This document shows positions 5,608 through 55,406 of a stretch of DNA of 64,000 nt, piece after piece. The DNA comes from Octopus vulgaris (Eukaryota): contig OX597837.1 in the NCBI GenBank assembly GCA_951406725.2, positions 1-64,000 on the forward strand, in the 5' to 3' direction. The notes beneath the pieces are model-generated. The model was given only the letters and a program-made list of their open reading frames with translations. It was not told the origin of the DNA and did no database searches. A program made the translations under genes and the position numbers. Within the stretch, counting starts at the first letter, position 1. Every line of letters starts with the position of its first letter.

Positions 5608-5691
<84 letters not shown>

Positions 5692-5775
5692 TTTGATTTT
5701 GATTTTTCCAGTTTCAGCTTATGAGCTGTGGCCATGCTGGGGCACCGCCATTTGGTGTTGCTACTTGCTTTCACT

Positions 5776-8700
5776 TCATGAAGGCTTTCTAGCAGCTGCT
5801 ATTTGGTGCATGAGAGAGTTCGATGCAGCTGCCCTCATCTGCCCCTCCTGCCGTGAAGTTGGTTCATCTGGGACACCTGACAGGAAGAGATCCAGCTTCA
5901 TTTTAAAGACATCTGTATCCACCCCATGCAGGTCTCTCAGGTTCTTCGGGAGGATATTGAAGAGCTGTGGGCCTCGGAAGCCCAGGCTATCACAGAATCT
6001 TGTCCTACATCTTGATGGCAAGTTTGGAGTCCTAGGCACCACGCAGTGGCGCCCAGTTCTGGCATTTGCGTAACTCTCGATGCCAAAGTTCAGGACACTT
6101 CCCTCCAGGATCTTCCAGATGTATATTATGGCATATCTTTCCCGCCTACGCTCCAGGGAATATAATTTTAATTTCCTGAGTCTTTCCCAGTAGCTTACAT
6201 TCTGCATAGAGGCTATCTTCTTCGTGTAGCTACGTTGGATCGCCTCGAGCTCTGTGATCAACTTGACACTGGATGGTGACCATAACTGAGAGCAGTAGTC
6301 AAAGTGGCTTAGGACAAGTGTCCTCCAGAGGACCATCATGGTTTCTTGTTCTCTTGTTCTAAAGGTTCTGAGGATCCATCCGGCCAGTCGTCTACATTTC
6401 ATTGCCAATTTAGCAACATGTACACGAAAGGTCGCGTCATCACTCATGTAAATACCTAGGTCACGCACTGATTGTGCCTCTGGGATTGCTATTCCTCCGG
6501 GTCCAGTGTATTCATTGGGTATTGCATTTAGTTTTGCATGCTGATAGTATAGAGCTTGAAACTTTTCAGCATTGAACTGCATGCTATTCTTTTCGGCCCA
6601 CTTGTATATTTTGTCTAGCTCACATTGCAGGTGTTTAGTGTCCTCAGGGTTCTGTATTGCCTGTGAAACTTTTGTATCATCTGCATAACTTGTGATCGTG
6701 GCTCTCTGCGTGGCTGAGGGCATGTCTGAGAGGGCCATTATGAACAGTAGTGGTCCCAGAACAGTGCCCTGCGGAACACCGCTCACTATTTGCGTGTTAA
6801 TGGAAGTGGCCCCATTGGCCACTACCACCTGACTTCTATCTTTCAGAAAGTCATGAAGCCATTCTCCCAGTTTTCCAACTATGTTGAGATCACGCAGTTT
6901 GTGACATATCATTCCATGATCGACTTTATCAAAGGCCTTTGCAAAGTCGAGATATATCACTTCCACATTTGAGTGGTTGAGCAGCCGTTTCAGCACCCAG
7001 TCATAGTGTTGTAGGAGCTGAGTTAAACAGCTTCTCCCTGGTCGGAAACCATGTTGGGTGTCGGGCAGCAAGTCATTTTCTTCAAGGAAGGTGATCAGCT
7101 TCCTTCTGACTATTCGTTCCATGACCTTGCTGATGTGTGAGGTCAGAGAGATAGGTCTATAGTTCTTGGCTTCCGCTCTGCTACCTCCTTTATGAATGGG
7201 GCATATTTTACCTTCCTTCAGTTTTCTTGGAAGTTTGCCAGCTGCAAGGAAGCTCTGAAAGAGGAACTGCAGTGGTCTTGCTAGGACTCTCTTACATGCT
7301 TTTAGGAGGATTGCCGGGAATCCATCGGGGCCAGTAGCTGAGTCTGTTTTCATTTCATCTATAGCCTTGATTACATCGTCTTCCTTTATATCGATGTAAT
7401 CTATCGTCGCCGCCTCTGATTTTATATCTGCAGTGGTAAAAAAGTCAGTTGGATTGGTGATTTGGAGATGCCCAAGGGGTGGAGTGAAAACACTCTTGAA
7501 TTGCTCATTCAGTATTTCACTTACCCTCATTGGTTTTCCTGTAAGTGTGCCATCCTTTTCGAGGAGTGGCCCTATTCTACAGTGCACCGTAGCTGTTTCT
7601 TTGGCATACCTGTAGAAAGCTCTGGGGTTAGATTTTATGTTGTCTATAGCCCAGGCTTCTTTGTCTGCTCTTTCCTTTTCATGGGAGAGTTTCAGACATT
7701 TTTCGATTTCCAACAGTTTTATTTTTAGGCGGGACTTTTCACTGCTTTCAATCTGTTTGTTTAGGCGATTTGAAAATTTTGTACGCCGTCTCATTAGAAT
7801 TTTCCTCTCTCTGGGGATTTTGTTCTTGTGTACAGTGGCCTTTCTCTCTGGGACATATTTGTAGCATATGGCTTGCATTACAGACATGAATTGTTGAAGT
7901 TTCACGTCGATGTCTGGCGAGGAGAGACATTTAGGCCAGTTTTGTTTGAGGATCTCTTTCTCAATTTGTTTCCAGTTTGCCTTATGGTAGTTCAAGCTGG
8001 AAAGATTCTGGGGTTTCTTGTAGGCTGCATGTCCGTGCTCTCTTTTGGCCCGTACATGGTCAGCTCTATCATGTTGTGATCCGAGAGTAGTGTCGGTGTC
8101 ACTTTCACATTATGGATGAGATCCATGTCATTTGTGAAGCAGAGATCCAGTGTGTTACCTGCCCTGGTTGGTTGGAGTATTACCTGCTCCATGTACAGGG
8201 TGTTGATGAGGTTCAGGAGGGACCTCGCCTGTCCTCGTTCACATCTTGTCATTCCTGGGAGAGAAAGGCCCTCGGGCCATCTGACATTTGGCAGATTGAA
8301 GTCTCCCATAAGAAGTACACTTATGTGTTGTTCTAATGTGGTTAGAACTTCTTCTATTTTTATAAGGCAGTCTTCAAACTTGCCCACATGGCTTGGGGCA
8401 TCTGGAGGGCGGTATGTAGCACACACAACTACATCAAGTTGCCTAATATGTACAATTAGTGTGTCACACACCGAGTTTGAGTATGACAAGAGGACCTGGG
8501 GTGTGAGGTCCTCACGGATGTACATAGCAACACCTCCATGACTCCTTTCTTTCCTGTCGGTCCGTAGTACAGCATACTGTGGTATGTGTAACTCCGCATC
8601 TGCTATATCCGGTTTCAGGTGCGTTTCCGTTAGTGCTATGCATAAGGCTTGATTGCATGCAACAAAATCTCTCAGGAACGGGATTTTTGTCCTGTTACTG

Positions 8701-8888
8701 AGTGTTTGCAGTCCTCTGATGTTCAGTAGGAGCATCGAGGTGAGGTGTACGTTGTTGCCGGTGGTGTCCATCCTGGGTCTGTTTGCTGTGGTGGTGGTCT
8801 GGTATATAGTGGGTAGTCCCACCTGCGGGCTTGGGTTTGATGAAGCCAGGTCAGCTGCTGTACAATCTTTTGTGCCATGCACAAAAAA
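5776..8888 (-). pseudogene. LINE1 ORF2: APE endonuclease plus reverse transcriptase (one frameshift near 8000-8020)
   Basis: APE motifs LLNIRGL, ALTETHL, YRPP, MGDFNLP, TLDLCF, SDH; RT motifs YRPISLTS, QHGFR, YLDFAKAFD, GVPQGTVLGP, YADD; CR1-type C-terminus LYSLERRRER. Confidence 0.95.
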
Positions 8889-9728
8889 GATTGTTGCTCA
8901 GCAGCTGCCCTTTCGACAACATCATGTTGGTGGTTTGTGGCACGCACAACATCTGCGTACCTCCGCTTTGGGGCAAGTGGTGCGTGGTCCATCTCTTTTC
9001 CTTGTGTTGATGGTTTGTCCATCTGCCTCGTGTCTCTGTGGCAGGGTCCCCGATGTGCAAAGCGGCAGCCTGCACCTTCCTTTCCATGCCAGCAGGAACC
9101 TCTCAGGTAGAACCTACACACCCGTGTGCGCTGTCCGTTTCCATCTTTTGCGGTTCCACTTCTATTCCTGGTTTTTTCACCCTTTGGTCCTGCTTGAGCT
9201 TTTCCTTTAGCTCTACCAGCCCTTCTTTTAGTTCTTCCTCCTCCTCTACCTCTTCACCGGGTTCTCCGTCTCCATGGCCTTTGCTGCCGGTTGGAGAACT
9301 TGCACCTGGGTTCACTTCCCGGGCAGGTTTCTCATTCAAAACCTCCTCCCGGGCATCCACCAGGTGGGGGTGACTTCTTTCATCGTCTCCATTCTTGTCA
9401 TCTTTGCCTCGCTCGTTCTCAAAGATGGCATCAAGTGCGCCAATGTGCGACCGTACAAGCGCATATGAGCGCACGAATTCCCGTCTCCATTCTTGTCATC
9501 TTTGCCTCGCTCGTTCTCAAAGATGACATCAAGTGCGCCAATGTGCGACCGTACAAGCGCATATGAGCGCACGAATTCCCGTCTCTTTCGCTCCATCTGA
9601 GCCGCTGTCCTCTTGTAGCCTCTGCTCTTCAGCGCAGCCGCAATCACCTCGCTAGGGCTATCTCCGCCGGCGCACTCCCATGCTTGTACGAATAAATCCA
9701 GCTCGTCAGGTCTCCATGCTCTGGACAT
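8723..9728 (-). pseudogene. LINE1 ORF1: trihelix Myb/SANT-like domain, acidic linker, CCCH zinc finger (disrupted by a 98-nt duplication and one frameshift)
   Basis: MSRAWRPDELDLFVQAW...IAAALKSRGYKRTAAQMERKRREF; CRFYLRGSCWHGKEGAGCRFAH. Confidence 0.8.
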
Positions 9729-9779: not shown

Positions 9780-10460
9780 CAAGAAGATATTTAATCTTAA
9801 GGCTAATTATGGGATAGAGTATTATTAATATTAACAATATTAAAGTTTTTGGGTAAAAACGTTATTTAATCTTAGGCTAATTAGGAGATAGAGTATCTGA
9901 AAATATGTTAACAATATTACAATTATATTAAAGTGTGGGTAATAATCGTTATTTAATCTTGGGGCTAATTAGAAGGTAGAGTATTCAAAAATATATTAAA
10001 GTGTGGGTGAAAAAGTTAAAGTGTGGGTAAAAACGTTATTTAATCTTAAGGCTAATTAGAGGATAGAGTATCTGAAAATATGTTAACAATATTACAATTA
10101 TATTAAAGTGTGGGTAATAATCGTTATTTAATCTTGAGGCTAATTAAAGGTAGAGTATTCAAAAATATATTAAAGTGTGGGTGAAAAAGTTAAAGTGTGG
10201 GTAAAAACGTTATTTAATCTTAAGGCTAATTAGATAGATTATCTGAAAATATATTAACAAATATTTAAAATGTGGGTAAAAAGGCTAATTAGAAAGATAT
10301 TAGAGTGTGGGTAAAAAATTAGATGTTAAAGTGTGGGTAATAAACGTTGTTTATTCTTAAGGCTAATTAGAAGATAGAGTATCTGAAAAATTATTAACAA
10401 TAAACAGTATTAAACGTTATTTAATCTTAAGGCTAATTAGAAGATGGAGTATCTGAAAGA
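9780..10460 (-). repeat. Tandem monomer array in the LINE1 5'UTR
   Basis: Repeated AAAGTGTGGGTAA / CGTTATTTAATCTTAAGGCTAATTAGA..ATAGAGTATCTGAAAA modules with a ~179-bp higher-order duplication. Confidence 0.9.
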
Positions 10461-13986: not shown

Positions 13987-14915
<929 letters not shown>

Positions 14916-16527: not shown

Positions 16528-17352
16528 TCATACATATTCACACACGTGTACAAATGAATCTATATACACGTCTATATAGGCACAGGAAAAAATGCGGGAT
16601 AGAAAAGTACAGAAAAAATTATTATGTGTGAAAATATAAAAATATATGAAATAATAAAAGGTATAATGAGATAAAAAAACTTTTTGGGACATAATATAGA
16701 AAGCAGGTTTTATGTTTTCTTTGGGGGACCAAAAACGTAACAAAAATTTTGTCACATGTGGGCATGATCCGAAAAGTTCTGTCCTTGAGTTTAGACATGT
16801 AGTAGGGTCTAAGCTGCTTTTCCAGATGTCGCATAGACCGCACTTTCCGCTGCCGTTGGTGTAGGGCTTACATTTGGCCAAAATCTTCCAATGGATGTTA
16901 TAATCGACACCTTTTTCTTTTAAAGACCAAATATGATTAGATAATTTTGTCGCTTTTCTTTTGTTCCAGTGCCTAAAACTCAAGGTGTGGTTATTGAATC
17001 TGGCCTTGAAATTACCCTCTGTAAGGCCCACGTATTTCTTCGTCGAAACGGTGTCTTTAGTGGTTATAGAGTCCACGGTAGCTTCATAGATGATGGTCTC
17101 GGATATGCAAGCTCCATTTAGCGGGCACAATTTTTTATTCCTGCATGAACAGCTGTTTTCTTGTTGTGGTTTTTGTGTGTTATGTGTGATTATATTTTTA
17201 AAATTGGTAGTTGAACTAAAACTAATTTTTAAATTGTGTTTATTGAAGAGTTTCCTATAAGTATGGTTAACTGGAAAATGTCTATCTATCAGTGTTAAGA
17301 AATATTTACCTATATTGAAGGTCACCTCGGGTGAGTAAGGGGGTGTAAACAT
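16528..17352 (-). pseudogene. Penelope linker plus GIY-YIG endonuclease fragment
   Basis: (W)FTPPYS, CSCRNKKLCPLNGAC, IIYEA...YVGLTEGNFKARFNNH..SF, HIWSLK, CGLC, LNSRTELFGSCPH. Confidence 0.9.
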
Positions 17353-17715
17353 TTTTAAAGCGTTGCCCCAGTTTATAATAAGGCTTTAAAATATAGTGGT
17401 TTTAGCGAAAAAATAAAATATACACCTGCTACTAGCCCAACAGTAAAGAAGAGGAAAAATAGAAATACGAAGATCATCTGGTTTACACCCCCTTACTCAC
17501 CCGAGGTGACCTTTAATATAGGTAAATATTTCTTAACACTGATAGATAGACATTTTCCAGTTAACCATACTTATAGGAAACTCTTCAATAAACACAATTT
17601 AAAAATTAGTTTTATCTTGACTATTGAGTAATTGTAACATTATTTTATAGATGAATTTCCTCTATTTACATAATATTGAGGTCTCTTTCTTTCTTTTGTT
17701 ATCTTACCGTTTTTA

Positions 17716-22044: not shown

Positions 22045-22510
22045 ACCACTTTTCTTCTAAATGTATATTATACATATGTGTGTGTGTGTTGTGTTGCATG
22101 TGTGTGTGTGTAATTGGGCGCAACGTAACCAAATAGTTAAAAGGTTCTGTTCGCAACCCCGAGGTTTCGGGTTTGTTCCCACTGTATAGCGTTTTGAATA
22201 AATATTTTCTGTGGCTACCGATCGATCCATACCTTGTAAGGGAAACTGAGCAGACGGATATTGTACAGAAGCCCTTCGGGTCGAGTGTGTCTCAAATTAG
22301 GAGAAACAACTTCGTTACACTCTGCATCACATTGATACTGCCTGAGAATGACTTTGGTGGAATATGAGTCTATGGAATAAATTTAGACTTAGATAAACTT
22401 AGATATGTTTCGACCAAAGATTGGTCCAGGCCATGTCTAACTTAATAGTACCACCTGATAGGATTATTCGAATCCTGTTTAAGTCAAGTTTTGTTTAAGT
22501 CAAGTTTTGT

Positions 22511-25500
22511 TCAAGTAGTGAGTTCTTGTTGGGTGAGTTGTATCCAGTTTTGTTCAAGTAGTGAGTTCTTGTTGGGTGGGTTGTATCCAATTATGGGTGG
22601 CTTATCTGGTATTCTTTGAAGGAATCTATCCAGACTCTGTTTAAAGTTGATGGGATCCTTTTCCTCTTTGATCTCCCTCGGGACAATGTTAAATAGGGCA
22701 GGGCCTGTTGAGGAAAAGAAATTATGTTGCAGTGTACATGTATGTTGTGATCTTGAATTGGGCAGGGGACGTATAGCCCGTGGTCCAAGTCTTGGATGAA
22801 CTTTGAAGCTAATGTTTAGGTCGTTTGGGCAAAATTGGCGGTATATTTTCCACATCGTACAAATGATGTACCGCTCACGGCGACGCTGGAGGGAGTAAAG
22901 TTTCAAGGCTTTAAGGCGATCCCAATAATCGAGAACAGCCATGCCTTCAATTTGTTTAGTGAGTGCCCTCTGGGGTGACTCAATTCTGGAGATGTTTTGT
23001 CTTGTGTGAGGAGACCACAGTGGGCAGCAGTATTCAAGGTGTGGCCGTACAAAGGAGGAAAAAAGTGGTATGATGACACCTTGTTCTCTGGACCGGAAAG
23101 TTCTTAAGATCCAGGAACTCATCCTACGAGCTATATCGACCTTCTTGTTGATGTGTGCACTCCAACTGAGATCGTCATCAACAATTACACCCAGGTCTCT
23201 GATATTGTTAGAAGCTGTGAGCGGTTCCCCTGAAGGAAGAGAGTATGGTTGTTTTAGTGAGGAATTTCTTCCAAAATGCATCAGCTCAAATTTTCCCTCA
23301 TTCAGTTGCATTTTGTTTCTGTCTGCCCATTGACTCACAGCATATAGATCAGACTGGAGTTGAGTTCGGTCTGCTTCTTCATTGACGATTTGCTGGAGCT
23401 TAGTGTCATCAGCAAATATTTTCACTTTGCAGTAATGTACGACACTGGAAAGGTCGTTTACGTAAATTATGAAGAGTAGCGGACCCAAAACAGTTCCCTG
23501 GGGAACACCGCTGGTGACTTTTGCTGGGTTTGAGTGGACTCCATCAACTACATGTTGTGTTCTATTCGCCAGGAAATACTGAATCCAGTGTAGAACTTTT
23601 CCACGGATTCCAACGTTTGCCAATTTTGAGAGTAGGATGTTATGGTCTACCCTGTCGAACGTTTTACTGAAGTCAAGATATATGACGTCAGAGTTCGAAC
23701 CTGTTCCCAAAGCTTTGAGTACATCTTCAATGTGGTGTAAGAGCTGTGTTAGACAGTCCCTGCCACAGCGAAAGCCATGCTGATTTGCATTTAGGAGTTT
23801 GTGGGTCTCCAGGAAGTCAGCTATCCTTGATCTTAACACTCTTTCAAACACTTTAATGATGTGGGAGGTGAGTGAAATTGGGCGATAGTTGACTGCGAGG
23901 GATCTGTTTCCCTGTTTGAAAACCGGGATGACCGACTGGGATAGAAACTGTTTCGGTATATAACCTGCGTCTAACGGATTTCTCCAGAGGTTGGTCAGAG
24001 GGACTGCAAGTTGGTATCTACATTCCTTCAGGAGACTAGCGGGAAGTCTATCAGGGCCTACAGCAGAGTAATGTTTGACCTCATTTATTGCTGCTACGAT
24101 GTCGGTGGCAGTGAAGGTTATGTCTGATATTTGGTGTTGGGAGTCAACTTCGTTCGTTTCCCTTACGCCAATATCAGTGGGAACACTAAAGACAGAGCAG
24201 TATTGTTTCTGCAGTATTTCTGCCATTTCTTTAGCATCGTGTTGGGGAATGCCGTTATCATCAATCAATGGCCCAATGTGTGAGACAGTGGTTCTATGCT
24301 TATTTGCATAAGAATAGAACACTTTTGGGTTCTGTTTGATGTTTTTGATTACCCATTGTTCCTCCACAGCTCTTTGATTTTCAATGGAGGTTTTCATGTT
24401 GGTCTGCAGATGAAGTTCTTCCAGCTCTAGTCTTTTCATTGTTGTTGAATGTGGATGTTGTGTGTGGGAATATTTTAATTGGTTGATTTTTTTGTTGAGT
24501 CTTTTGATGCGCCTGATGAGTGTTTTTTTCTTTTTAGGGAGCCGGTTTCTGTTTGTGTTAGTAGATTTCTTGGGAGCGGGTTTAGAGCATGTATAGGTGA
24601 CAATGTTTTCAAAGTGCTGCCACGCGGTCTCAATATGAGAGGAATTGAGAGTAAAAGACCAGTCGATGGAAGACAGATCCTTTCTGATTGTTCCCCAGTC
24701 CGCTTTGTGGAAGTTTATGTTGTCAAATGGGTGCCATGAAGTGGGATTGGCTGGTTTGGTTTTTATATGTCGGGAATTAAGATTGCAGAGTACCATGTCG
24801 TGGTCTGAGAGGAGAGTTTTTTCGACTGAAATACTGTGAACGTAGCTAGAGTGATTGGTCAATACCAGACCCAAGATCGTTTTATTCTGTCTCGTTGGTT
24901 CAAGCACTAGCTGAGTCAGGAAATACTCATCCATCAGATTAAAGAGCAGTTCTGCTGCTGCTCTATCTGATGTAGAGCCCTTGCCTAACTTCAGAGTATT
25001 TGTGGGCCAGTTCACATGAGGGAGGTTAAAATCACCCATCACTAGTATGTTTCCAGAGTGGTACTTCCGAAGGAAGGACTTGACTTTGCTAAGGCACTCT
25101 TCAAAGTACTTTAGAGGTGTCTGGGGAGGCCTGTAAAGACCAACAATGGTTATGTCCTTGGCTTTGTTGTATAGTGATACCGATTCGATTCACAGTAGCC
25201 ATTGGAAAATATGTCCTTGGCATCAAGTGAAAAGGAGTCATGGATAAAGATGGCTGTCCCTCCCTTATTTCGGTCTGTGCGATCCGCACGAACAATGGTG
25301 AAATCTTTTATTTTCACCTCTGCGTCCATATGGGTGTTGTTCAGGTGAGTCTCGGTAAGGATAAAGAAAGGGAAGCAATGTGCCATTTCGGCAAGCCAAC
25401 TCTCTATATATGGGATCTTCCATTTTTGGGCAATAATTGATGGGTTGATGCCACGTACATTTAACAGGAATGTCGAGGTAAGGGAAGTTGGTAATGGGTG

Positions 25501-25596
25501 AGTGGTCCTTGTGATTTGCATAGATGGTTGGTGATAGCTCGCTGGATCTCCTGGCTTAGGTCGGCCTTCATATTTTCTAGGTATGTCAGTAAAAAC
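22511..25596 (-). pseudogene. LINE2 ORF2: APE plus RT (lesions in APE near 25080-25190)
   Basis: LLNVRGI, LTETHL, MGDFNLP, SDH; YRPISLTS, QHGFR, YLDFSKTFD, GVPQGTVLGP, FADD, LYSLQRRRER. Confidence 0.95.
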
Positions 25597-26664
25597 GAGT
25601 TACTTGTTTGGTTTGCCACTTGGTCAGAGGATACATATTTCATGTTGGCGTTATTTGGTGTTTTTTCATGGTTCTGTCTACGTTGTTTGATTGTAGGAGG
25701 GGAAACGTGGTTGTATTTTGTTCTTGTTGTTGTCCTAGATTTCCTCTGTTCCTGTTTATATTTATTCTGTGATCGTTTTGTGCCCTTCAGATGGTGGTGG
25801 TTGCATTCTGGGTTCAGGCACATCCTTTGTGAGACAGAAGTTTGGTACAGTTTAGGATGGAATAAGGTGCATCCATTGCCTTTTATGCATCCGTATTTAG
25901 GATCAGAACCATAGATTCTGTATTTAGGACAGTATTTGGGGTGGAGGTGGGGGCAATTTTTTCCTGTGCCCATAACAAGTCTACGACATAAGGTCGGATG
26001 GGAAAAAGCACAGCGTCCATTGTTGTTTGTGCCGCTGGGGCCAAATCTACAATTGCCTTTAGAATAGTAACGGCAGGGGGTTATATTTGGTTGTAGTAGT
26101 GGTTTTTCTATTCTGGCAGTTAGAAGCAGCTTGTTGATTTTGTGATGGTGGGTTCTGGCTTGCCAGGATGTGGTCAAATCTGCAGCTGCCTTGAGAGTAG
26201 TAATGGCAGATAGTTTTACGTGGATGTAGTAGTGATTTTCCTATTGTGGCAGTAGTAGTAGTGGAGAGTTGTTTTTGTTGTAGCAGCATTGGAACTTGAC
26301 TAGTGGTAGTATTAGAGTGTTGTTGACTTGGTTCATCATGTGCTGTTGTCAATGGAAGTAGGTCAGTTGATTGTTGCTGTTGAAGTGACCCCTGACCTGT
26401 TGGAATTTGGTCATTTGGTATACTGGATTCGTTGGCAAGAATGGCTTTTAGTGTAGCCATGTGCGCGTGAAAAATAGGGAATATCCTAACAATTTCTTTT
26501 ATTTTATTTTCTATCTGTTTTACAGATCTGTGAAAGGATTTTTTCGTTAAATCCTCTGTTATTTTACTGTAAACATTAGCTTCGTTGTGATGGATGAACC
26601 AAGCGTTAATCATTGCAGTAATTTCATTTTCAACCCAGCGGCGTGTTTGAAAATTATTGGCCAT
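25461..26664 (-). pseudogene. LINE2 ORF1: trihelix Myb/SANT-like domain, Q/T-rich linker, multiple CCCH fingers (one frameshift near 26090-26170)
   Basis: RRWVENEITAMINAW...YSKITEDLTKKSFHRSVKQIENKIKEI; CRYYSKGNCRFG..GRCAFSH, CPKYRIYG..GCIKGNGCTLFH, CLNPECNHHH. Confidence 0.82.
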
Positions 26665-27205
26665 ATTCAGTGGGGTAGTGTTGTGTAATATATATATGTA
26701 TGTATGTGTATGCGTGTATATGTACACCAGTTATTGATGGCTTGGAAAGTTTGTGTCGATATACTCGGAAATTCGTGGCTTGTGTGTGTGAGAGTTCAGT
26801 GTAATTGGTACAATCTAATTAGTACAATCAGGATGAGCGGTGTCTTTAATACAGATCAAGAAAAAATACTCAACCATTTACAAAAAAAAAAACTGAGTTG
26901 ATCGAACAAAGGAATTACCATTGTCGGGACCACTGGGGATCCATCCCTACCCACAGAGCGTCATTGGAGGAGTATTTTTTGTCACTTGCCCGTGACGAAA
27001 AATACTCCTCTAGTACTGTTGTGACTTCGTCTTCAGAACTCATTTTTTCCGTCCAAATGATTTTGAAAACTGCAGAATAAATGATAATTAGATGGGGAAA
27101 TGTCCGGCGAATATGGTGGGTGGGGCATCGTTCCCCATTCAAACTGCTCCAGCCTTTAGAATGTTATCCTCGCTGTATGTGGCCGAGCATTATTTATGGG
27201 ATGAC

Positions 27206-34630: not shown

Positions 34631-37600
34631 TTTATTATAATTTATTATTTAAATTTGTTACACAAAAAGTACGAAAAACTACACGTGCCCTACGAAAATG
34701 ACGACCGTCAAAATAATGGGCCGGACGTTGTTCCTCATGTCCCGACAATAAAACCAAAAAGGCATAAATGGACACGTGAGGAATACATTTCAATCCTATA
34801 CGCTTACTTTACAGCAGTGCTCTACCCAAAGAACGAAAACACAACAACATATACATATAAAATATAGAAGAAAAATAACATAAATAAAGACTTGGATACA
34901 GCAATGAACCCTAATAAACTAGCTAACGTACGAAGATATATTCTCAGCGCAAAAAATATCAGAAATAGAAATAGAACATTTAAAAGAAAAAATACATCAG
35001 GAAAATGTTGATAGAAGCCACACAACAATACCAAATAATATAAACACTGAGATAGTAAAACACGAAGACAAACGTAACATTCCCAACAAAAACGATGTAT
35101 ACAAAAAACAACAGAACCAGACCGTAAGGATGCATAATAATGCACGACAAGCAGCAAGCCAAAACACGACAGACAAACATACGAATGAGAAAGAGAGTGA
35201 CACAAATCTAAAACCTGGAAACAACGAAGGGGAGCCTAATGATTATGATACTATAAAAAGTAGAATAATCAAAGAACTGAAAACCACAGATCTCAAAATG
35301 GACCATCGACCATACCTCCCAAAAATCAAAATAGACAAAAAAAACAACATCAATTATAAATAACATAAACCTAGCCGTCACGGAACTAATAGACAATGAA
35401 ACAAATAGCAATATCACTGAGCTAAATGACTTAGTATATGCAGCAGCCACTGCAGCCACAAAAGAAGCTGGATACTCCCTCAGACCCATCCAAACAGGAG
35501 TACCACCACCCAAACAAACCCTGTGGATAAATAACATTAAAAAAATACAAAAAATGAGAAAAGATCTGTCGATTTTTAATGAAATCAGTAGACAATCAAC
35601 GCTACTAAGCAACAAAAAGAAAACAAAAATACTGTGCAAATACAACAACACAGAAAAAGATTTACCTGAGATAAAAGAAAAGCTAAAGCAAGATATCCTT
35701 GCCAAAACACAAAGGATCCGCCGGTACGAGAAACGCCAACGTTTCTGTGAACAAAACAAACAGTTCAACTCCAACCCCCAAAAGTTCTACCAAGAACTTG
35801 GCAAAAATAAAATAGACATCACTGCAGCACCAACGGCAGAAGAAGTGGAAGAATTCTGGAAAGAAATATGGTCGGCGAATGAACAACCAAAAAAAGGAGT
35901 ATTAAAACAACAAACTTAGCATCTGAGCAACTTTGGACCCCCATAACAACTGAAGAGGTCACCCAGGCACTGCAAAGACTAAGCAACTGGAAGGCACCTG
36001 GGCATGACAAGATCCTCAACTTCTGGTTGAAATATCTAACAGGAATGCACAAAAAGCTGGCTGAAAACTTTAACAACATACTGGCAGAGCCAGAGACAAT
36101 GCCTGATTGGCTCACGAAAGGGAAAACCATCTTAATTCTCATCCAATGAGACAGCAAAACCAGAAAACTATAGACCTATAACCTGTCTCCCTACAATGTA
36201 CAAAGCATTTACTGCAGTAATATCACACAGATTGAACAAGCACCTGGACGAAAACAACCTATTTCCAGAAGAGCAGAAAGGATGCCGCAAAGGCTCATAT
36301 GGCTGTAAAGATCAACTAATGATCAATAAAGCCATAACTGAAGACAGCCACAGAAAGAAGAAAGGCCTCAGTATGGCCTGGATCGACTACAGAAAGGCGT
36401 TTGATAGCATCCCCCACACATGGATCCTCGAAACACTAGCCATTAACAAAGTAGCACCAACAATTATAAAGTACATAGGACACTCTATGAATAAATGGCA
36501 GATAATGCTACAGCTCCAAACAAAAGAGGGACTCATGAAAACCAAAGCCATTAGAAGAGGAATATTCCAAGGAGACACGCTCTCTCTACTCCTTTTCTGC
36601 TTGGCACTGTCACCTCTATCTGATATGCTAAATAGAACTGGATGCGGATATAAATGTTACGGCAAAACGATCAGCCACCTTTTATATATGGATGACCTAA
36701 AACTATACGCAACAAATGACAAACAGCTGGAAACATTACTAAAGACAGTTCATGGATTTACCAAAGAAATAGATATGAAATTTGGATTAGAAAAATGCAC
36801 CAAAGTAACCATGAAAAGAGGAAAACTAGTTAAGAGTAGCAACATCACACTAGATAAAACCAATGGAATAAAAGAATTAGACCAAAGCCAAACTTACAAA
36901 TACTTAGGAATCCATGAACTAGATAAGACACAGCACACACAAATGAAAGAGAAAATAAAAAAAGAATATTATAGACGAGTTAGATCAATACTAAAAACAG
37001 CTCAATGCTTAAAACAAAATAATAGGTATTAACACTTTAGCCGTCCCAGTTATAAGTTACAGCTACAATATCCTTAACTGGACACTAACTGAGCTGACCA
37101 AAATAGATAGGAAAACAAGAAAAATAATGACAGGATCAAGGATGCATCACCCAAAATCTGACATAGAAAGGCTATATATACAACGTATAGAAGGTGGTAG
37201 AGGCCTTATACAGCTGAAAAACTACTATAAAATAACCACCACAGGACTGCAAAAATATCTACTTCTGAAGGAAGGAAAACTGATACAAATAGCAGCAAAA
37301 TACGAGCAAAACAAAAAACTGTTCTCAGTATTTAAGGATGCTGACAAATACAAACAAGAAGAAGATGAAGAAACAACAAAAGCTATAAAACAAATGAAAT
37401 CGAAACTAAAACTAGAACAGCAACGAACCATGATAAAACGATGGCAAGAAAAGCCCCTTCATGGCAAATACTGGACTAAACTAAATGCAAAAGAAATAGA
37501 CAAAGCAAAATCCCAGCAACAGTTGAGAAGCTCAGGACTCAAATCAGAGACAGAGATTTTTAATTGCAGCACAAGACCAAAGCCTCCCCACCAGAAATTA

Positions 37601-38304
37601 CCATAAACATGTAATGAAAAGAAATATAACAAGTAACTGCAGAATATGTGGAGATGGACAAGAAACAATAAATCATATTATCTCTGGCTGCCCAGTCCTG
37701 GCTAAGAAGGAATATATTCACAGACACGACAAAGTTGGGACCTACATACACTGGAAGCTATGCCAACATTATGGAATAACAACAGAAAAAAGATGGTATA
37801 GGCACACACCAGAAAAGGTCACAGAAAACGAGAAAGCAACCATACTCTGGGATATGCCAATACACACAGATAGAGAAATTAAGGCCAACAGACCAACAGT
37901 CAGAGATCATGAAGAAAAAAATGCTTTCTAATTGATGTATCAATACCAGCAGATGACAACGTTTCTCTAAAAGAAATGGAGAAACTCTCAAAATACAAAG
38001 ACCTGGAAATAGGGGTAACCAGAATGTGGATTCTAAAAACAGAAACAATTCCTATTATAGTAGGTGCATTAGGCCTGATAAAAAAATATTCAGACAAATA
38101 CATAACAAAACACCAGGACTTACAAACACATATAACATATAGAAAATTGCACTACTAGGCACTGCACACATCCTACGCAAAACACTTTCCATACAGTAAC
38201 CATCAGAGCATCACAACAAATCACAGCACATACCCAAGGCACACAGAGGTAGTGAAGTGAAAGCACGCTATAAAAATAAAACTACTGAATAATAAAACTA
38301 CTGA
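34631..38304 (+). mobile_element. Full-length degenerate Dong/R4-clade non-LTR retrotransposon (RT plus RLE) inserted in (TAA)n
   Basis: KRHKWTREE N-terminus; EEQKGCRKGSYGCKDQL, WIDYRKAFDSIPH, GIFQGD, HLLYMDDLKLY; CRICG..ETINHIISGC, RHD, ANRP, EKLSKYKDL; (AAT)n on both sides. Confidence 0.93.
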
Positions 38305-38328: not shown

Positions 38329-39915
38329 GTCGTCGTCGTCGGCTCCAGCTCGTATCCGAGCATTGGATTCGTCAGTTTCTATCCAGTCTCCTCGGCTGAT
38401 GTTTGTGCCAAGTAGGTGGTAAAAGAGTCGTGAGCAGAATTCGCACAGGATAATCAGTGCGTGTCGAGGATGTTGAAGACGCTCCGTTCTTCTGCATTTT
38501 ACCTCCTCATTCTGTTGTCTGTTTTGCTCGAAGGAACTGGCTTCATTGCGGATAGCAGTCCTCCAGGCTGTCCTATCTATGGCAATATGTGCCTATGAGG
38601 ATGGCTGGATGTTAGTTTGAGCCAGGGTCCGTTTGAGCTGGTCTTCAAAACGGAATGTCGGGCATCCTATGGATCTTGTTCCGATTGCAAGTTCTCCGTA
38701 GAGCATAATCCTCGGGAGGCAAGAGGGCACCATACGCTGGGCGTGATCTGCCCAGCGGAGACGATGGCGAAGAATGGTGGCTTCGACGCTTGGTAGTGAG
38801 ACGCGGCGAAGAACCTCGTTGTTGGTAATATGATCTTCCCATCCTATATTGATGGTCTGTCGTAGCTCGGATTGCTGGAAGTATTCAAGTCACAGTGGTA
38901 CAGCGTCCAAGTTTCACAAGCGTAGAGATGAGTTGACCGGACAATGGCACGGAAGACCATGATCTTTGTCCAGATCTTCAATCAGCACGTGGTTGAAGAA
39001 TATATATTGGCTGAGTCTACCGGAGGTGGAATGGGCCGCCTTGATCCTGTTCTTCACGTCATTTTCAAACGTTTCTTCGAAACGATACTTTCAAGGTATG
39101 CGAAGTGTTCAACTTCTAGGGGTTGACCGTTGATGCTAATGTTTGTGGGTGGACTGTTCTGGCCTGGTGCAGGTTGGATCAGGGTCTTGGTCTTTAATGT
39201 GCTTACCTGCATCCCGACGTATTCGTATGCCGCCTTGTAAAGATCAGCTGTCCTTTGTAAGGAATCTGCGATCCGGCTCGAGGTGACATTGTCATCGGCA
39301 TACTACATCTTACGGACTGAGGTAGTGGAGGTCCTCGTCTTTGCATGGAGGTGTGCAAGATTGAAGTCCGCCATCCAAGAGATAGCGCATATTGATGGAA
39401 GGCAAGTCTAGTGGAAATTTCGTTGAACATGGTGGCCATGTACAAAGAGAAACAGGTTGATGCCAGGACGCATCCTTGCTTAAGATCCCCAGTGATGGGA
39501 AACGGGTCTGTGAGGGCATTTTAATGGCATACCCTACCCACCATACCGTTGTGGAGTGAGCGGACCAGGGCAATGATGTCCTCCGGACATCCAAACCGAG
39601 CAAGGATGGTCCACATTGCAGGACGGGGGACCTTGTCAAAGGCTTTCTTTAGACCCCAGAAGATGAACATTGGAGGCTGTTATTGTTCTTGACACTTCTC
39701 CTGAAGTTGACGAGCAGAAAAGATCATGTTGATTGTGCCTCGAGAGGGTCGAAAATCACACTGGGACTCAGGGAAGACGCCTTCCACGAGGATGAAGAAG
39801 TGATTGAGTAGGATACGGGCGTAGATCATACTTACAATACTCAGGAGTGAGATGCCCCGATAGTTGTTGCAATCCTCCCGGTCTCCCTTCTTGTAGATGG
39901 TGATGATAGTTACAA
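38329..39915 (-). mobile_element. 5'-truncated degenerate RTE-clade LINE
   Basis: IYKKGDREDCNNYRGISLLS...PESQCDFRPSRGTINMIFSARQLQEKC; (GAC)n tail at 38329. Confidence 0.88.
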
Positions 39916-40507
39916 CGCGGAAGTAGTTACGCGAAGGTGGACTTTGTCTTTCATCCCTTTCGGGTGGGTTGATAAAATAAGTACCAGTTATGCGCTGGAT
40001 TCGATCTAATCGACTTTCCTCTTCTGAAACTGCTGGCCTTAAGCTGAAATCTGAAACCGATAATGATGATGAAGATATTGATACTAGTATAATTACGTTA
40101 ATAATCATAACAGAAATAATTTAAAATACAGTAAAATATTGTTGAAAATAAAAGATAAAATAACATAAAATAATATAAAAAGACGAACAACACAATCTGT
40201 ACAAAATAAACAAATAATGGGAATCGGTGGGGGGAGGGTAACAACGCAAGAAAAACAAAAAAATACAAATAACTGAAGCCAAACTAATGAGAGCAACGAA
40301 GCGATTAGAGCTAACTGGTAGAGTTCACCGTTAACCAAACGGAATTATTTCCCCTTTCTTTTAGTAACTCTCTAACATATTTTCCCAGATGGAGGCGGAT
40401 TGTGGTGGTTGGATTTCATTTTATTTCTGAATTGTGTTGTGAGAATGATGTTTGGTGGTGTTTGGTGGTGTGTGGTGTCGGCGAGCATTCGTGCGTGCAT
40501 GTGAATG

Positions 40508-50296: not shown

Positions 50297-51005
50297 AATG
50301 AGATTGTATACAGTGCCCAGGTGCACGAAAAAAGGCGGCATCAGGTGTACTGTTGGTGAATTTTAGAAAGCATGGAAGTTTTGAAGGATGTAGTATCTCG
50401 ACAGCTAACGACTGGTACGGGTAGTTTATTCCATACTTCAGCAATTCCGAGTGTGAAAAATATTTCCGAAAGTCATGGATGCTGTGTTGCTTTTCGAATT
50501 TGTAAGCATGTCCACAAGTATTAGATGAATGAAGTACAAAAAGGTGCCCAAGATTGTTGTCGGAGAGATGGCGGATAATCTTGTGGATGTCTACGAAGTC
50601 AGTTGCCAGACATCAGAGCTCCAATGTGTACATGTTCCAGGAAGCAAGACATTCAAAGAACAGTAGATGCTTGATGGCGGGTATTCATTTGGTTGCACGT
50701 TTCTGAACAGTTTCCAGGAAATTCATATGCCGAGCAAGATAGGGATTCCAGATTGGTGATGAAAACTGTGAACGTACTATAGTCATATGCAGCTTTAAAC
50801 AGATAGCTGGAGAGCGGCTGATAAAAGTCTTGAGTAATGCTAAGACATCCTTCTTGACAATCCTAGAAATGTGGTTTTTCCAAAGCGGATCGCTGTTGAC
50901 AAGAATACCCAAGTCACATTAACTGGCAGACTTCATAAGGTTGGGGTTGTAGAGGGAGTATGTAAAAACTAGCTTGAGTTGCCAGTCAGTAATCCATTAC
51001 AGCAT
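50296..51005 (-). mobile_element. Degenerate CR1 3' fragment
   Basis: DLGILV..L.WKNHISRIVKK...SPIWNPYL...LETVQKRATK. Confidence 0.8.
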
Positions 51006-51547: not shown

Positions 51548-52432
51548 TTTGAAGGTATGCGTTTGCAATCCAGGAACAGGAAATATCAACCAAATACCTG
51601 AGTCACAAAAGGGACAGAGATGCGGGAAAAACCGTAAAATGTGACAATCGATGCAGACTTTGTGGAGCCCACACTGAAGATATCACCCACATCATAAGTA
51701 GTTGTCTGAAAATGTCATCGTGGTATTATCTACGATGAGACATGATCTTGTAGCTAGGGCACTCTATAATGAAATCAGTAGGGATGATAATCCCGAAGAC
51801 AAAGAAATAAAACCCCACCATATTGCCACTCAGAATGAAGCCATTGCCACTCAGAATAAAAAGGAATACTGGTGGAATGTACCAGTGAAGACCTCAATAA
51901 AATGTAAGCACAACAGACCTGATATAATGATTTGGGACAGAGAAGAGAAACTGTGCACAGTTGTGGAAATTAGGTGCCCAGCAGATATTAACACAAAGCT
52001 GAAGATCAGTGAAAAAGAGAACACCTATGCTGAACTATTAAGAAATCTGCAGTTACTCTATCCAGATTACAAGTTCAGGTTTATACCTGTAACTATTGTA
52101 ACACGCTGCCTAAATACTAATCTTGAGAAATTAGGCTTCTCAAAAACAGTACGGAGAAAGCTAATTCGAAGACTACAGATCCAATCCATCACTGGAACTG
52201 TAACAATCTGTAAAACTTTCCAGAAGTTTATCATTTAAATATAGATGAGCGTGTTTAGATATAAAACTATATGTATCAGAATACATCCACAAAACATACA
52301 AAATCTGCACATACATACTTACAAACAAAAATACCTTATTGTTGATGTTGAAATTCCAATGAAGGAACCTTGGATCTAGGTTAGAAACTGGTTCTTTATT
52401 TGGCAAGAAATCTTGGAATAAACTGAATAATG
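51548..52432 (+). mobile_element. 3' fragment of an RLE-type (R4/CRE/NeSL-like) LINE
   Basis: AIQEQEISTKYL, CRLCG..EDITHIISSC, RHD, HNRPDIMIWD..VVEI.CP.D, EKENTY. Confidence 0.85.
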
Positions 52433-54134: not shown

Positions 54135-54558
54135 TATGATTTCGCTTAGGCATTGGCGTGTATGATCGTAAGATTGTGGTTTCGATTCCTGGAGCGGGTG
54201 ATGTGTTGTGTTCTCGAGCAAAACACTCTACTTCACGTTGCTCCAGTCCACTCAGATGGCAAAAAGGAGTTAATTCCATCCAGATAGGGAATATATACGC
54301 CACGGAAAATCGGGAAACCGGCCCTTATGACTCGGGAAGGAACTTTACTTAAGCATAAGGATATTAATACCCATAATCTTACAGCTTCTTAGAAGTCATT
54401 AATATGCATATATGTATATATAAATAGGAAATACTGGCACAACAAAGTACCAAGTTTTGCTGGAAATAGCAGTCGATAACCAATAACCTTGTTGTGCCAC
54501 TATTTCCGGTTTACAATTTTACATTTCCTGTGCTTTATTTAGCTAGAAAATAATATTT

Positions 54559-55376
54559 GGATCTTTTCCTTTTGAACGGCAGATGTCAACACAATTTCTA
54601 GTTAACTGAACACTTTTAAACTTCGTATACTGGTAGAATGTGTTTATAAAACATCATTTTCTCTTGGTTTTATTGAGAAAATTCTATAGTTTGTAAGATA
54701 TTTCGTCTGAAAATCCGAGCATTTCGGCAATTTTAACCAATACATTACCTCCATTTAGGTAAACAACATTTGCTGCGTCTAAAACCGAGACAAAATCCTG
54801 CAGCTAACCCTCCCCTCTCCCTAACCCTAATTTTTTTTTTCTTAATTGCTAAATTAATGTAATTGTTACGCGTGTAAAAATAACTAAAGCAATGGAAAAT
54901 AATTTAAAAAATTAACATACAAAATAATTCTATAATTTTATACACACGCTTTCCGTACGTATACGAAAGCGTGTGTTACGGAAAGCGTGTATATAAAATT
55001 ATAAAATTATTTTGTATGTTAATTTTTAAAATTATTTTCCATTGCTTTCGTTTTTTTTTTTTACACGCGTAACAATGAAATTAATTTAACAATTAAGAAA
55101 AAAAAATTTAGGGTTAGGGTTAGGGCTGGGGGGTGGGGTTAGGGTCAGTTACAGGATTTTGTCTCAGTTTTAGACGCAGCAAATGATTCTAGCTCAAAAG
55201 AAAGCATAGGATTGGTTAAAATTCGAAAAATTAAACTACGTTAAACAAACAAATTACAATTTTCTCAAGAAAGCCAAGAGAAAAAAAATGTTTTATTTTG
55301 ACACATTCTACCAGTATACGAAGTTTTAAAGTGTTTAGTTAACTAGAAATGTCTGCCGTTCAAAAGGAAAAGATCC
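54559..55376. mobile_element. Fold-back MITE, Merlin-like
   Basis: Near-complete 818-bp imperfect palindrome, termini GGATCTTTTCCTTTTGAACGGCAG, perfect 8-bp TSD TAATATTT. Confidence 0.85.
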
Positions 55377-55406
55377 TAATATTTTATTGCAATAATAATA
55401 ATAATG

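Follow-up and report, generated by a model that had tools for sequence, protein, structure and literature searches.

How the second open reading frame (ORF2) of a LINE is translated is a long-standing open question, and reinitiation is the usual answer. The question is raised here by two LINEs, LINE1 and LINE2, which both lie on the minus strand of Octopus vulgaris contig OX597837.1 (assembly GCA_951406725.2, positions 1-64,000; this whole stretch of 64,000 nucleotides is called the window). A first-pass annotation had proposed that ORF1 and ORF2 of both elements are joined by a -1 programmed ribosomal frameshift; such frameshifting at X_XXY_YYZ heptamers is a strategy typical of retroviruses rather than of LINEs.

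Overlapping frames in the two octopus elements

Both elements consist of ORF1 followed by an ORF2 with APE endonuclease and reverse transcriptase (RT), and end in a repeat tail, as APE-type non-LTR retrotransposons do (Table 1). Protease and integrase, the enzymes of LTR elements, were not detected in them by domain search. Judging from their ORF2 motifs, the two LINEs probably belong to the CR1/L2 group, and a named relative of the LINE1 endonuclease comes from Octopus sinensis. LINE1 and LINE2 are best explained as two decayed copies from a single LINE clade, characterized by tandem CCCH-type fingers in ORF1. Their frames are broken at further places, in LINE2 also near 25180-25190, behind the start of the endonuclease. 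The clade resembles CR1/L2-group elements (Jockey superfamily) with a PHD-type ORF1 in its APE-RT ORF2, its short tandem-repeat tail and the PHD finger in the ORF1 of relatives, whereas it differs from them in its tandem CCCH-type fingers and in the Myb/SANT-like N-terminus that the window elements have instead of PHD. An AT-rich tandem array with an 87/174-bp period (9850-10265) lies just 5' of LINE1 ORF1 and may represent either 5' UTR monomers or an unrelated satellite.

Table 1. Parts of LINE1 and LINE2, in window coordinates.
Feature	Position	Strand	Remark
LINE1 ORF1 N-terminus, Myb/SANT-like	9525..9728	-	Pfam PF13837 E 2e-4, below curated cut-off
98-bp tandem duplication breaking the LINE1 ORF1 frame downstream of the N-terminus	9384-9585	-	
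LINE1 ORF1 C-terminal frame: CCCH-type finger, S-F-L, tail	8723..9253	-	CCCH matches weak, below cut-off
TGA closing the -1 frame upstream of the LINE1 site	8898..8900	-	
LINE1 slippery heptamer U_UUU_UUG	8882..8888	-	ORF1 register; no listed family variant
LINE1 stretch matched by diverged contigs; heptamer in 5' arm of a predicted hairpin	8837..8888	-	z -2.3 and -1.7
LINE1 -1 frame: 57-codon low-complexity linker, then APE endonuclease	7992..8897	-	
LINE1 ORF1 stop TGA, inside first endonuclease codons	8725-8723	-	
LINE1 ORF2 remainder with RT; frame break divides it from the APE part	5776..8109	-	
LINE1 3' tail, 6-nt unit, three copies	5689..5706	-	read from sequence
LINE2 ORF1 N-terminal frame, Myb/SANT-like; frame break at internal duplication	26059..26730	-	E 2e-5, below cut-off
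LINE2 ORF1 C-terminal frame: tandem CCCH-type fingers, S-F-L, helix	25461..26240	-	
TAA closing the -1 frame upstream of the LINE2 site	25600..25602	-	
LINE2 heptamer G_UUU_UUA	25590..25596	-	
LINE2 -1 frame: 45-codon linker, then APE start	25174..25599	-	
LINE2 ORF1 stop TAA, inside first endonuclease codons	25463-25461	-	
LINE2 ORF2 remainder: APE C-terminal part and RT	22511..25189	-	
LINE2 likely 3' tail, 10-nt unit, two near-identical copies	22385..22404	-	read from sequence

Our reading of the two junctions reproduced what the first-pass annotation had described. The LINE1 ORF1 residues Q-S-F-L are encoded by CAA TCT TTT TTG, so that U_UUU_UUG stands in the ORF1 register. A TGA lies three codons ahead of the heptamer; behind it the -1 frame opens and has no stop through the endonuclease as far as 7992. 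LINE2 has N-S-F-L encoded by AAC TCG TTT TTA, giving G_UUU_UUA, and its -1 frame opens behind a TAA, one codon ahead of the heptamer, with no stop on the way into the endonuclease. Note that the first base of the LINE2 heptamer, read in a single copy, is non-canonical, so that the site is not a strict X_XXY_YYZ. ORF1 is open over the whole overlap in both elements and stops within the first Leu-Asn codons of the endonuclease. As the annotation had cautioned, both copies have in-frame ATGs before the endonuclease, at 8771 and 8735 in LINE1 and, in weak context, at 25521 in LINE2. The ATG at 8771, which precedes the endonuclease by 15 codons, has a strong context (A at -3, G at +4); a Met occurs at a similar place in the homologs P0002 and P0005, and a downstream AUG may add reinitiation as a second route in the LINE1 subfamily.

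Chance was estimated with a null model in which the ORF1 protein was fixed and synonymous codons were redrawn from the elements' own usage, products assuming independence. For the window pair alone, UUU_UUR is expected by chance at about 0.11 in each copy, and the open frame at 0.25 and 0.12. As these values are modest, the weight of the case comes from the relatives described below.

Since LINE1 and LINE2 are both decayed, the phase was also checked as a possible accident of these copies. LINE1 family variation was read from contigs of four public runs (599-2546 contigs per run), with variants counted at the 5% level. Four indels were found at this level, one of them in the stretch between heptamer and endonuclease, where it is an in-frame 3-nt deletion (8788); no frame-changing indel was found in the linker. 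None of the 40 substitutions listed, out of 62, falls within 8853-8892. In some diverged LINE1 contigs, the match covers 8837-8888 and the endonuclease start and leaves out the linker between them (loose ends and joints), a pattern that suggests conservation of the site and of about 45 nt behind it among diverged subfamilies.

Junctions of relatives in the same clade

Related loci were searched by ORF2 alignment, as ORF1 alignment was too variable. The scan covered 3 of the 64 parts of a metagenome collection, and the best 80 of 416 loci were kept. Five in-clade loci with a junction (L001, L002, L003, L004 and L006) were chosen on RT motifs and not on the site; L004, whose contig starts behind the fingers, was placed in the clade by ORF2 only. 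A further 2 loci came from the viral and 4 from the genome collections, none of them with an in-clade junction, and four genomes searched with the ORF1 profile gave no match. LINE ORF2 was also seen on short contigs of bacterial metagenome-assembled genomes (L083-L086), which are most likely eukaryotic contamination.

In all five relatives, ORF2 is in the -1 frame, and x-F-L (x being H, S, N, P and S, respectively) is encoded with U_UUU_UUA in the ORF1 register. The heptamer lies 1-3 codons after the opening of the -1 frame. This frame then remains open over 76-143 codons and reaches into the endonuclease; the third frame is interrupted by 5-11 stops. Thus, none of the five encodes F-L by non-slippery codons, and none has a -1-frame stop between heptamer and endonuclease; the relatives' junction sequences support the gag-pol-like ORF1-ORF2 fusion that had been proposed from the window pair. 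When the window pair is included, the -1 frame is open from the site into ORF2 in 7/7 elements (45-143 codons), and the synonymous positions are UUU in 7/7, UUR in 7/7 and a preceding U in 6/7. A strict X_XXY_YYZ in the ORF1 register is present in LINE1 and all five relatives (6/7), LINE2 deviating at the first base. The upstream -1-frame stop is a TGA exactly three codons before the heptamer in 5/7 elements (LINE1, L001, L002, L004 and L006). Under the null model, the heptamer has a joint P of 2e-7 over the five relatives, the open -1 frame one of 2e-10, and a -1-frame stop within four codons upstream of the heptamer in 7/7 elements a P of 3e-4. The seven junctions occupy all four sub-branches of one clade with a support of 100 (FastTree, 58 rows), so that their ancestry is shared, and ORF2 identity among the clade relatives is 36-47%. 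Judged from these sequences, the junction signal is real and deeply conserved.

We consider it likely that -1 ribosomal frameshifting yields an ORF1-ORF2 fusion in this widespread clade of animal LINEs. Most ribosomes would read ORF1 through F-L, the helix and the Q/P-rich tail, and a minority would slip by -1 on the U-run, probably through tandem tRNA slippage at the U_UUU_UUA-type site, and continue through the low-complexity linker into APE-RT. ORF1p would then be made in excess over the fusion, at a gag-pol-like ratio; the fusion itself would retain the fingers and the N-terminal domain and lose the predicted C-terminal helix starting at F-L. Several points speak against frameshifting, namely the absence of a 3' stimulator in the window copies, the first base G of LINE2, the last base G of LINE1 and the AUGs in the window copies and L001. 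A heptamer ending in G has a weak ending. Note that the basis at the DNA level is seven junctions only.

U_UUU_UUA is the HIV shift site, according to passages of a review (PMC5009743). The clade resembles HIV-1 gag-pol in having this heptamer in five relatives and a nucleic-acid-binding ORF that overlaps an enzyme ORF in the -1 frame. Unlike HIV-1, its members are non-LTR elements with APE and RT and have no conserved 3' stem-loop, and the window copies have U_UUU_UUG (LINE1) and G_UUU_UUA (LINE2). The earlier remark that -1 frameshifting is not the usual ORF2 mechanism of LINEs needs amendment to the extent that a precedent exists: a figure legend in a review (PMC5911963) states that ORF2 of Dictyostelium TRE5-A and TRE3-A depends on a -1 frameshift. 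These elements differ in host and structure, their ORF2 having a zinc finger, and the relevant passages of PMC5911963 give neither a heptamer nor an assay. The sections of PMC5009743 on non-LTR elements also discuss HeT-A and TART. For Paramecium LINEs, +1 frameshift, reinitiation or read-through is suggested in passages of PMC5405496; these elements and mammalian L1 share with the clade a bicistronic LINE mRNA and an ORF2 made at a low level. The words CCCH and frameshift do not occur in the main text of PMC4120745 and PMC13343379. We found no published account of this clade's junction in a literature search whose scope excluded subscription journals, Repbase Reports and supplements.

A clade of at least 1153 ORF1 clusters with an HIV-type heptamer at the junction allows a direct test of ORF2 translation, the prediction being that one synonymous heptamer change should abolish ORF2 expression. 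If the frameshifting reading is true, the enzyme acts as a fusion of ORF1 and ORF2 that brings its own zinc fingers, non-LTR elements also use retrovirus-like ratio control, and it is a mistake to annotate ORF2 from an internal Met. In a set of 124 ORF2 proteins, the start placed by the gene caller often lies inside the endonuclease, an observation to which we gave no weight. The clade would also constitute a large natural library of -1 signals, some without an obvious stimulator.

Other explanations of the motif and the open frame

The F-L motif was followed in ORF1 proteins. The LINE2 ORF1 query matched at least 1153 cluster representatives at E 0.001 or better, of which the best 150 (median local identity 36%) were examined; 128 of these had a tail of at least 80 residues behind the fingers. 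x-F-L/F was present in 117 of the 128 tails (x-F-L in 114, x-F-F in 3), at a median of 77 residues before the end, while F-I, F-V and F-M occurred in only 11, 6 and 5 tails, respectively. S-F-L is kept in P0001 and P0007, protein relatives of LINE2. A residue without a U-ending codon (Q/K/E/M/W) precedes F in only 1/117, compared with 24% nearby. We did not take this avoidance as proof, because helix capping could cause it. In the P0018 model, a predicted helix (367-393) starts at F368. Because a predicted helix starts at F-L, conservation of the protein motif is little evidence by itself, and DNA is needed.

The same helix bears on the idea that F-L is kept solely because an ORF1 helix begins there, in which case phase and codons would reflect coincidence or functionless shared ancestry. 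The residues before F (S, D, T, N, G and P) are helix-cap residues, which agrees with this idea. However, protein constraint can neither fix synonymous codons nor keep a second frame open in elements that are 36-47% identical and have linkers of 45-143 codons, and we regard the idea as extremely improbable.

Several further features of the ORF1 proteins were observed. Both window ORF1s have the Myb/SANT-like N-terminus (below the Pfam cut-off), whereas a PHD finger is found in the relatives L002, P0015 and P0087; the N-terminal domain thus appears to have been exchanged in two separate sub-branches. L002:3-2750 is a very long ORF1 frame of 916 codons with two PHD matches. In the predicted proteins P0037 and P0114, the frame with the ORF1 fingers and F-L continues without a shift into the endonuclease; these proteins probably represent indel-bearing copies or assembly errors.

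ORF2 could also be made apart from ORF1, by termination-reinitiation or internal initiation at an AUG or non-AUG codon near the ORF1 stop, with no recoding role for the U-run. The ORF1 stop is suitably placed for this in all seven elements, at +1 relative to the endonuclease start in 5/7 and 17 nt before it in 2/7, although the +1 stop may come simply from the Leu-Asn codons of the endonuclease. AUGs are available in both window copies and in L001, which has two in-frame ATGs before the endonuclease, and CUG or ACG lies near the start in L002 and L003. Mammalian L1, which has a short spacer between its ORFs, offers a model, as passages of PMC5009743 favour AUG-independent initiation for its ORF2. 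On the other hand, L002, L003, L004 and L006 (4/5 relatives) have no in-frame ATG before the endonuclease, the first in L002 lying five codons inside it; the earlier caveat about in-frame ATGs thus holds for the window copies and L001 but not for these four. In L004 and L006, a check for AUG and near-cognate codons, five in all, found none within 15 codons of the start. Separate initiation also leaves unexplained why the -1 frame is open for 76-143 codons back to the heptamer (P 2e-10) and why U_UUU_UUA codons are used (P 2e-7), and is unlikely in our judgement.

The U-run followed by AG might instead be a 3' splice acceptor, used in cis or for leader trans-splicing, that brings ORF2 in frame or onto its own mRNA. 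Such an acceptor equally predicts an open frame starting at the site, and YAG ends 1-3 nt after the heptamer in 4/7 elements, but the remaining three have their first YAG only at distances of 13, 24 and 34 nt. The codon after F-L starts with G in 83/117 proteins, as an acceptor would predict; acidic residues after F-L fit a helix start as well. An acceptor would tolerate C, yet the F and first Leu positions have no C in 7/7 elements, and a trans-spliced mRNA would need an AUG, which 4/5 relatives lack. No clean joint was seen at the site among the 15 joints listed, out of 18, in LINE1 DNA contigs. Taken with these objections, splicing at the site appears quite unlikely.

Slippage of the polymerase on the T-run, adding one U to some transcripts, would give the same fusion as the favoured frameshifting without any ribosomal slippage. 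In its favour, all seven elements have a run of 5-6 T, and transcriptional realignment is a known route according to the abstract of PMC5009743. Against it, the run is short for polymerase slippage and keeps one codon register in all seven. Retrotransposition of slipped transcripts should also leave 1-nt length variants in the DNA of the LINE1 family, and there is none among the variants listed. At this junction, we consider polymerase slippage very unlikely.

RNA structure and loci outside the clade

A canonical stimulator of -1 frameshifting is a 3' stem-loop or pseudoknot 6-9 nt downstream of the site. In neither window copy did a predicted 3' structure do better than shuffles (z -0.35 to +1.8), and the earlier caveat that no strong downstream pseudoknot is visible therefore stands for them. 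L001, L002 and L003 have no significant 3' structure, L004 has a candidate stem-loop 7 nt after the site (z -2.2), and L006 has a candidate pseudoknot (0/25 shuffles as good) with a spacer of only 2 nt. The predicted LINE1 hairpin (Table 1), whose 5' arm contains the heptamer, would be opened by a ribosome sitting on the site; a site-enclosing hairpin had z below -1.5 in only 3/7 elements. Pairing of 5' and 3' sequences around the HIV site is noted in passages of the review PMC5009743. In long-distance frameshift elements, the RNA just behind the site pairs with the 3' end of the molecule. No such pairing was seen here, L001 and L004 being without 3' ends: the four best duplex windows never lay past the ORF2 stop in any element, and the best LINE1 window, 88 nt before the ORF2 stop, was no further from the mean than the best windows elsewhere. 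The stimulator is likely to be family-specific or weak.

Loci outside the clade were intended as negative controls for the phase, but failed as such because the -1 phase is frequent there too: ORF2 was in the -1 phase in 26/36 outside loci with an assignable ORF1 (p 2e-6). Phase alone is therefore a weaker clade marker. The heptamer behaved differently, as U_UUU_UUR within four codons of the frame opening was found in 0/43 outside loci, indicating that the site is clade-specific in this set. The pooled phase bias of heptamers outside the clade was not significant (21/11/15 by phase, p 0.07; 34 loci, 5 near-relatives dropped). No ATG precedes the endonuclease in 21/43 outside loci. The -1 phase outside the clade hints at a wider phenomenon. 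It is conceivable, though we would stop a little short of expecting it, that -1 frameshifting to a gag-pol-like fusion is the normal route to ORF2 in much of the CR1/L2-like radiation, the CCCH clade having fixed U_UUU_UUA and its sister groups using A_AAA_AAC-type sites.

The window holds further retroelement-like fragments, namely RT remnants and open frames that may be element-derived, at 35335-37606 (+), 39428-39922 (-), 50529-50915 (-), 16528-17385 (-) and 51702-52238 (+); the RT remnants among them have weak similarity to LINE1 and LINE2. A palindromic stretch of about 930 bp (13987-14915) is 96% self-complementary, and a second, more decayed palindrome lies at 54552-55383.
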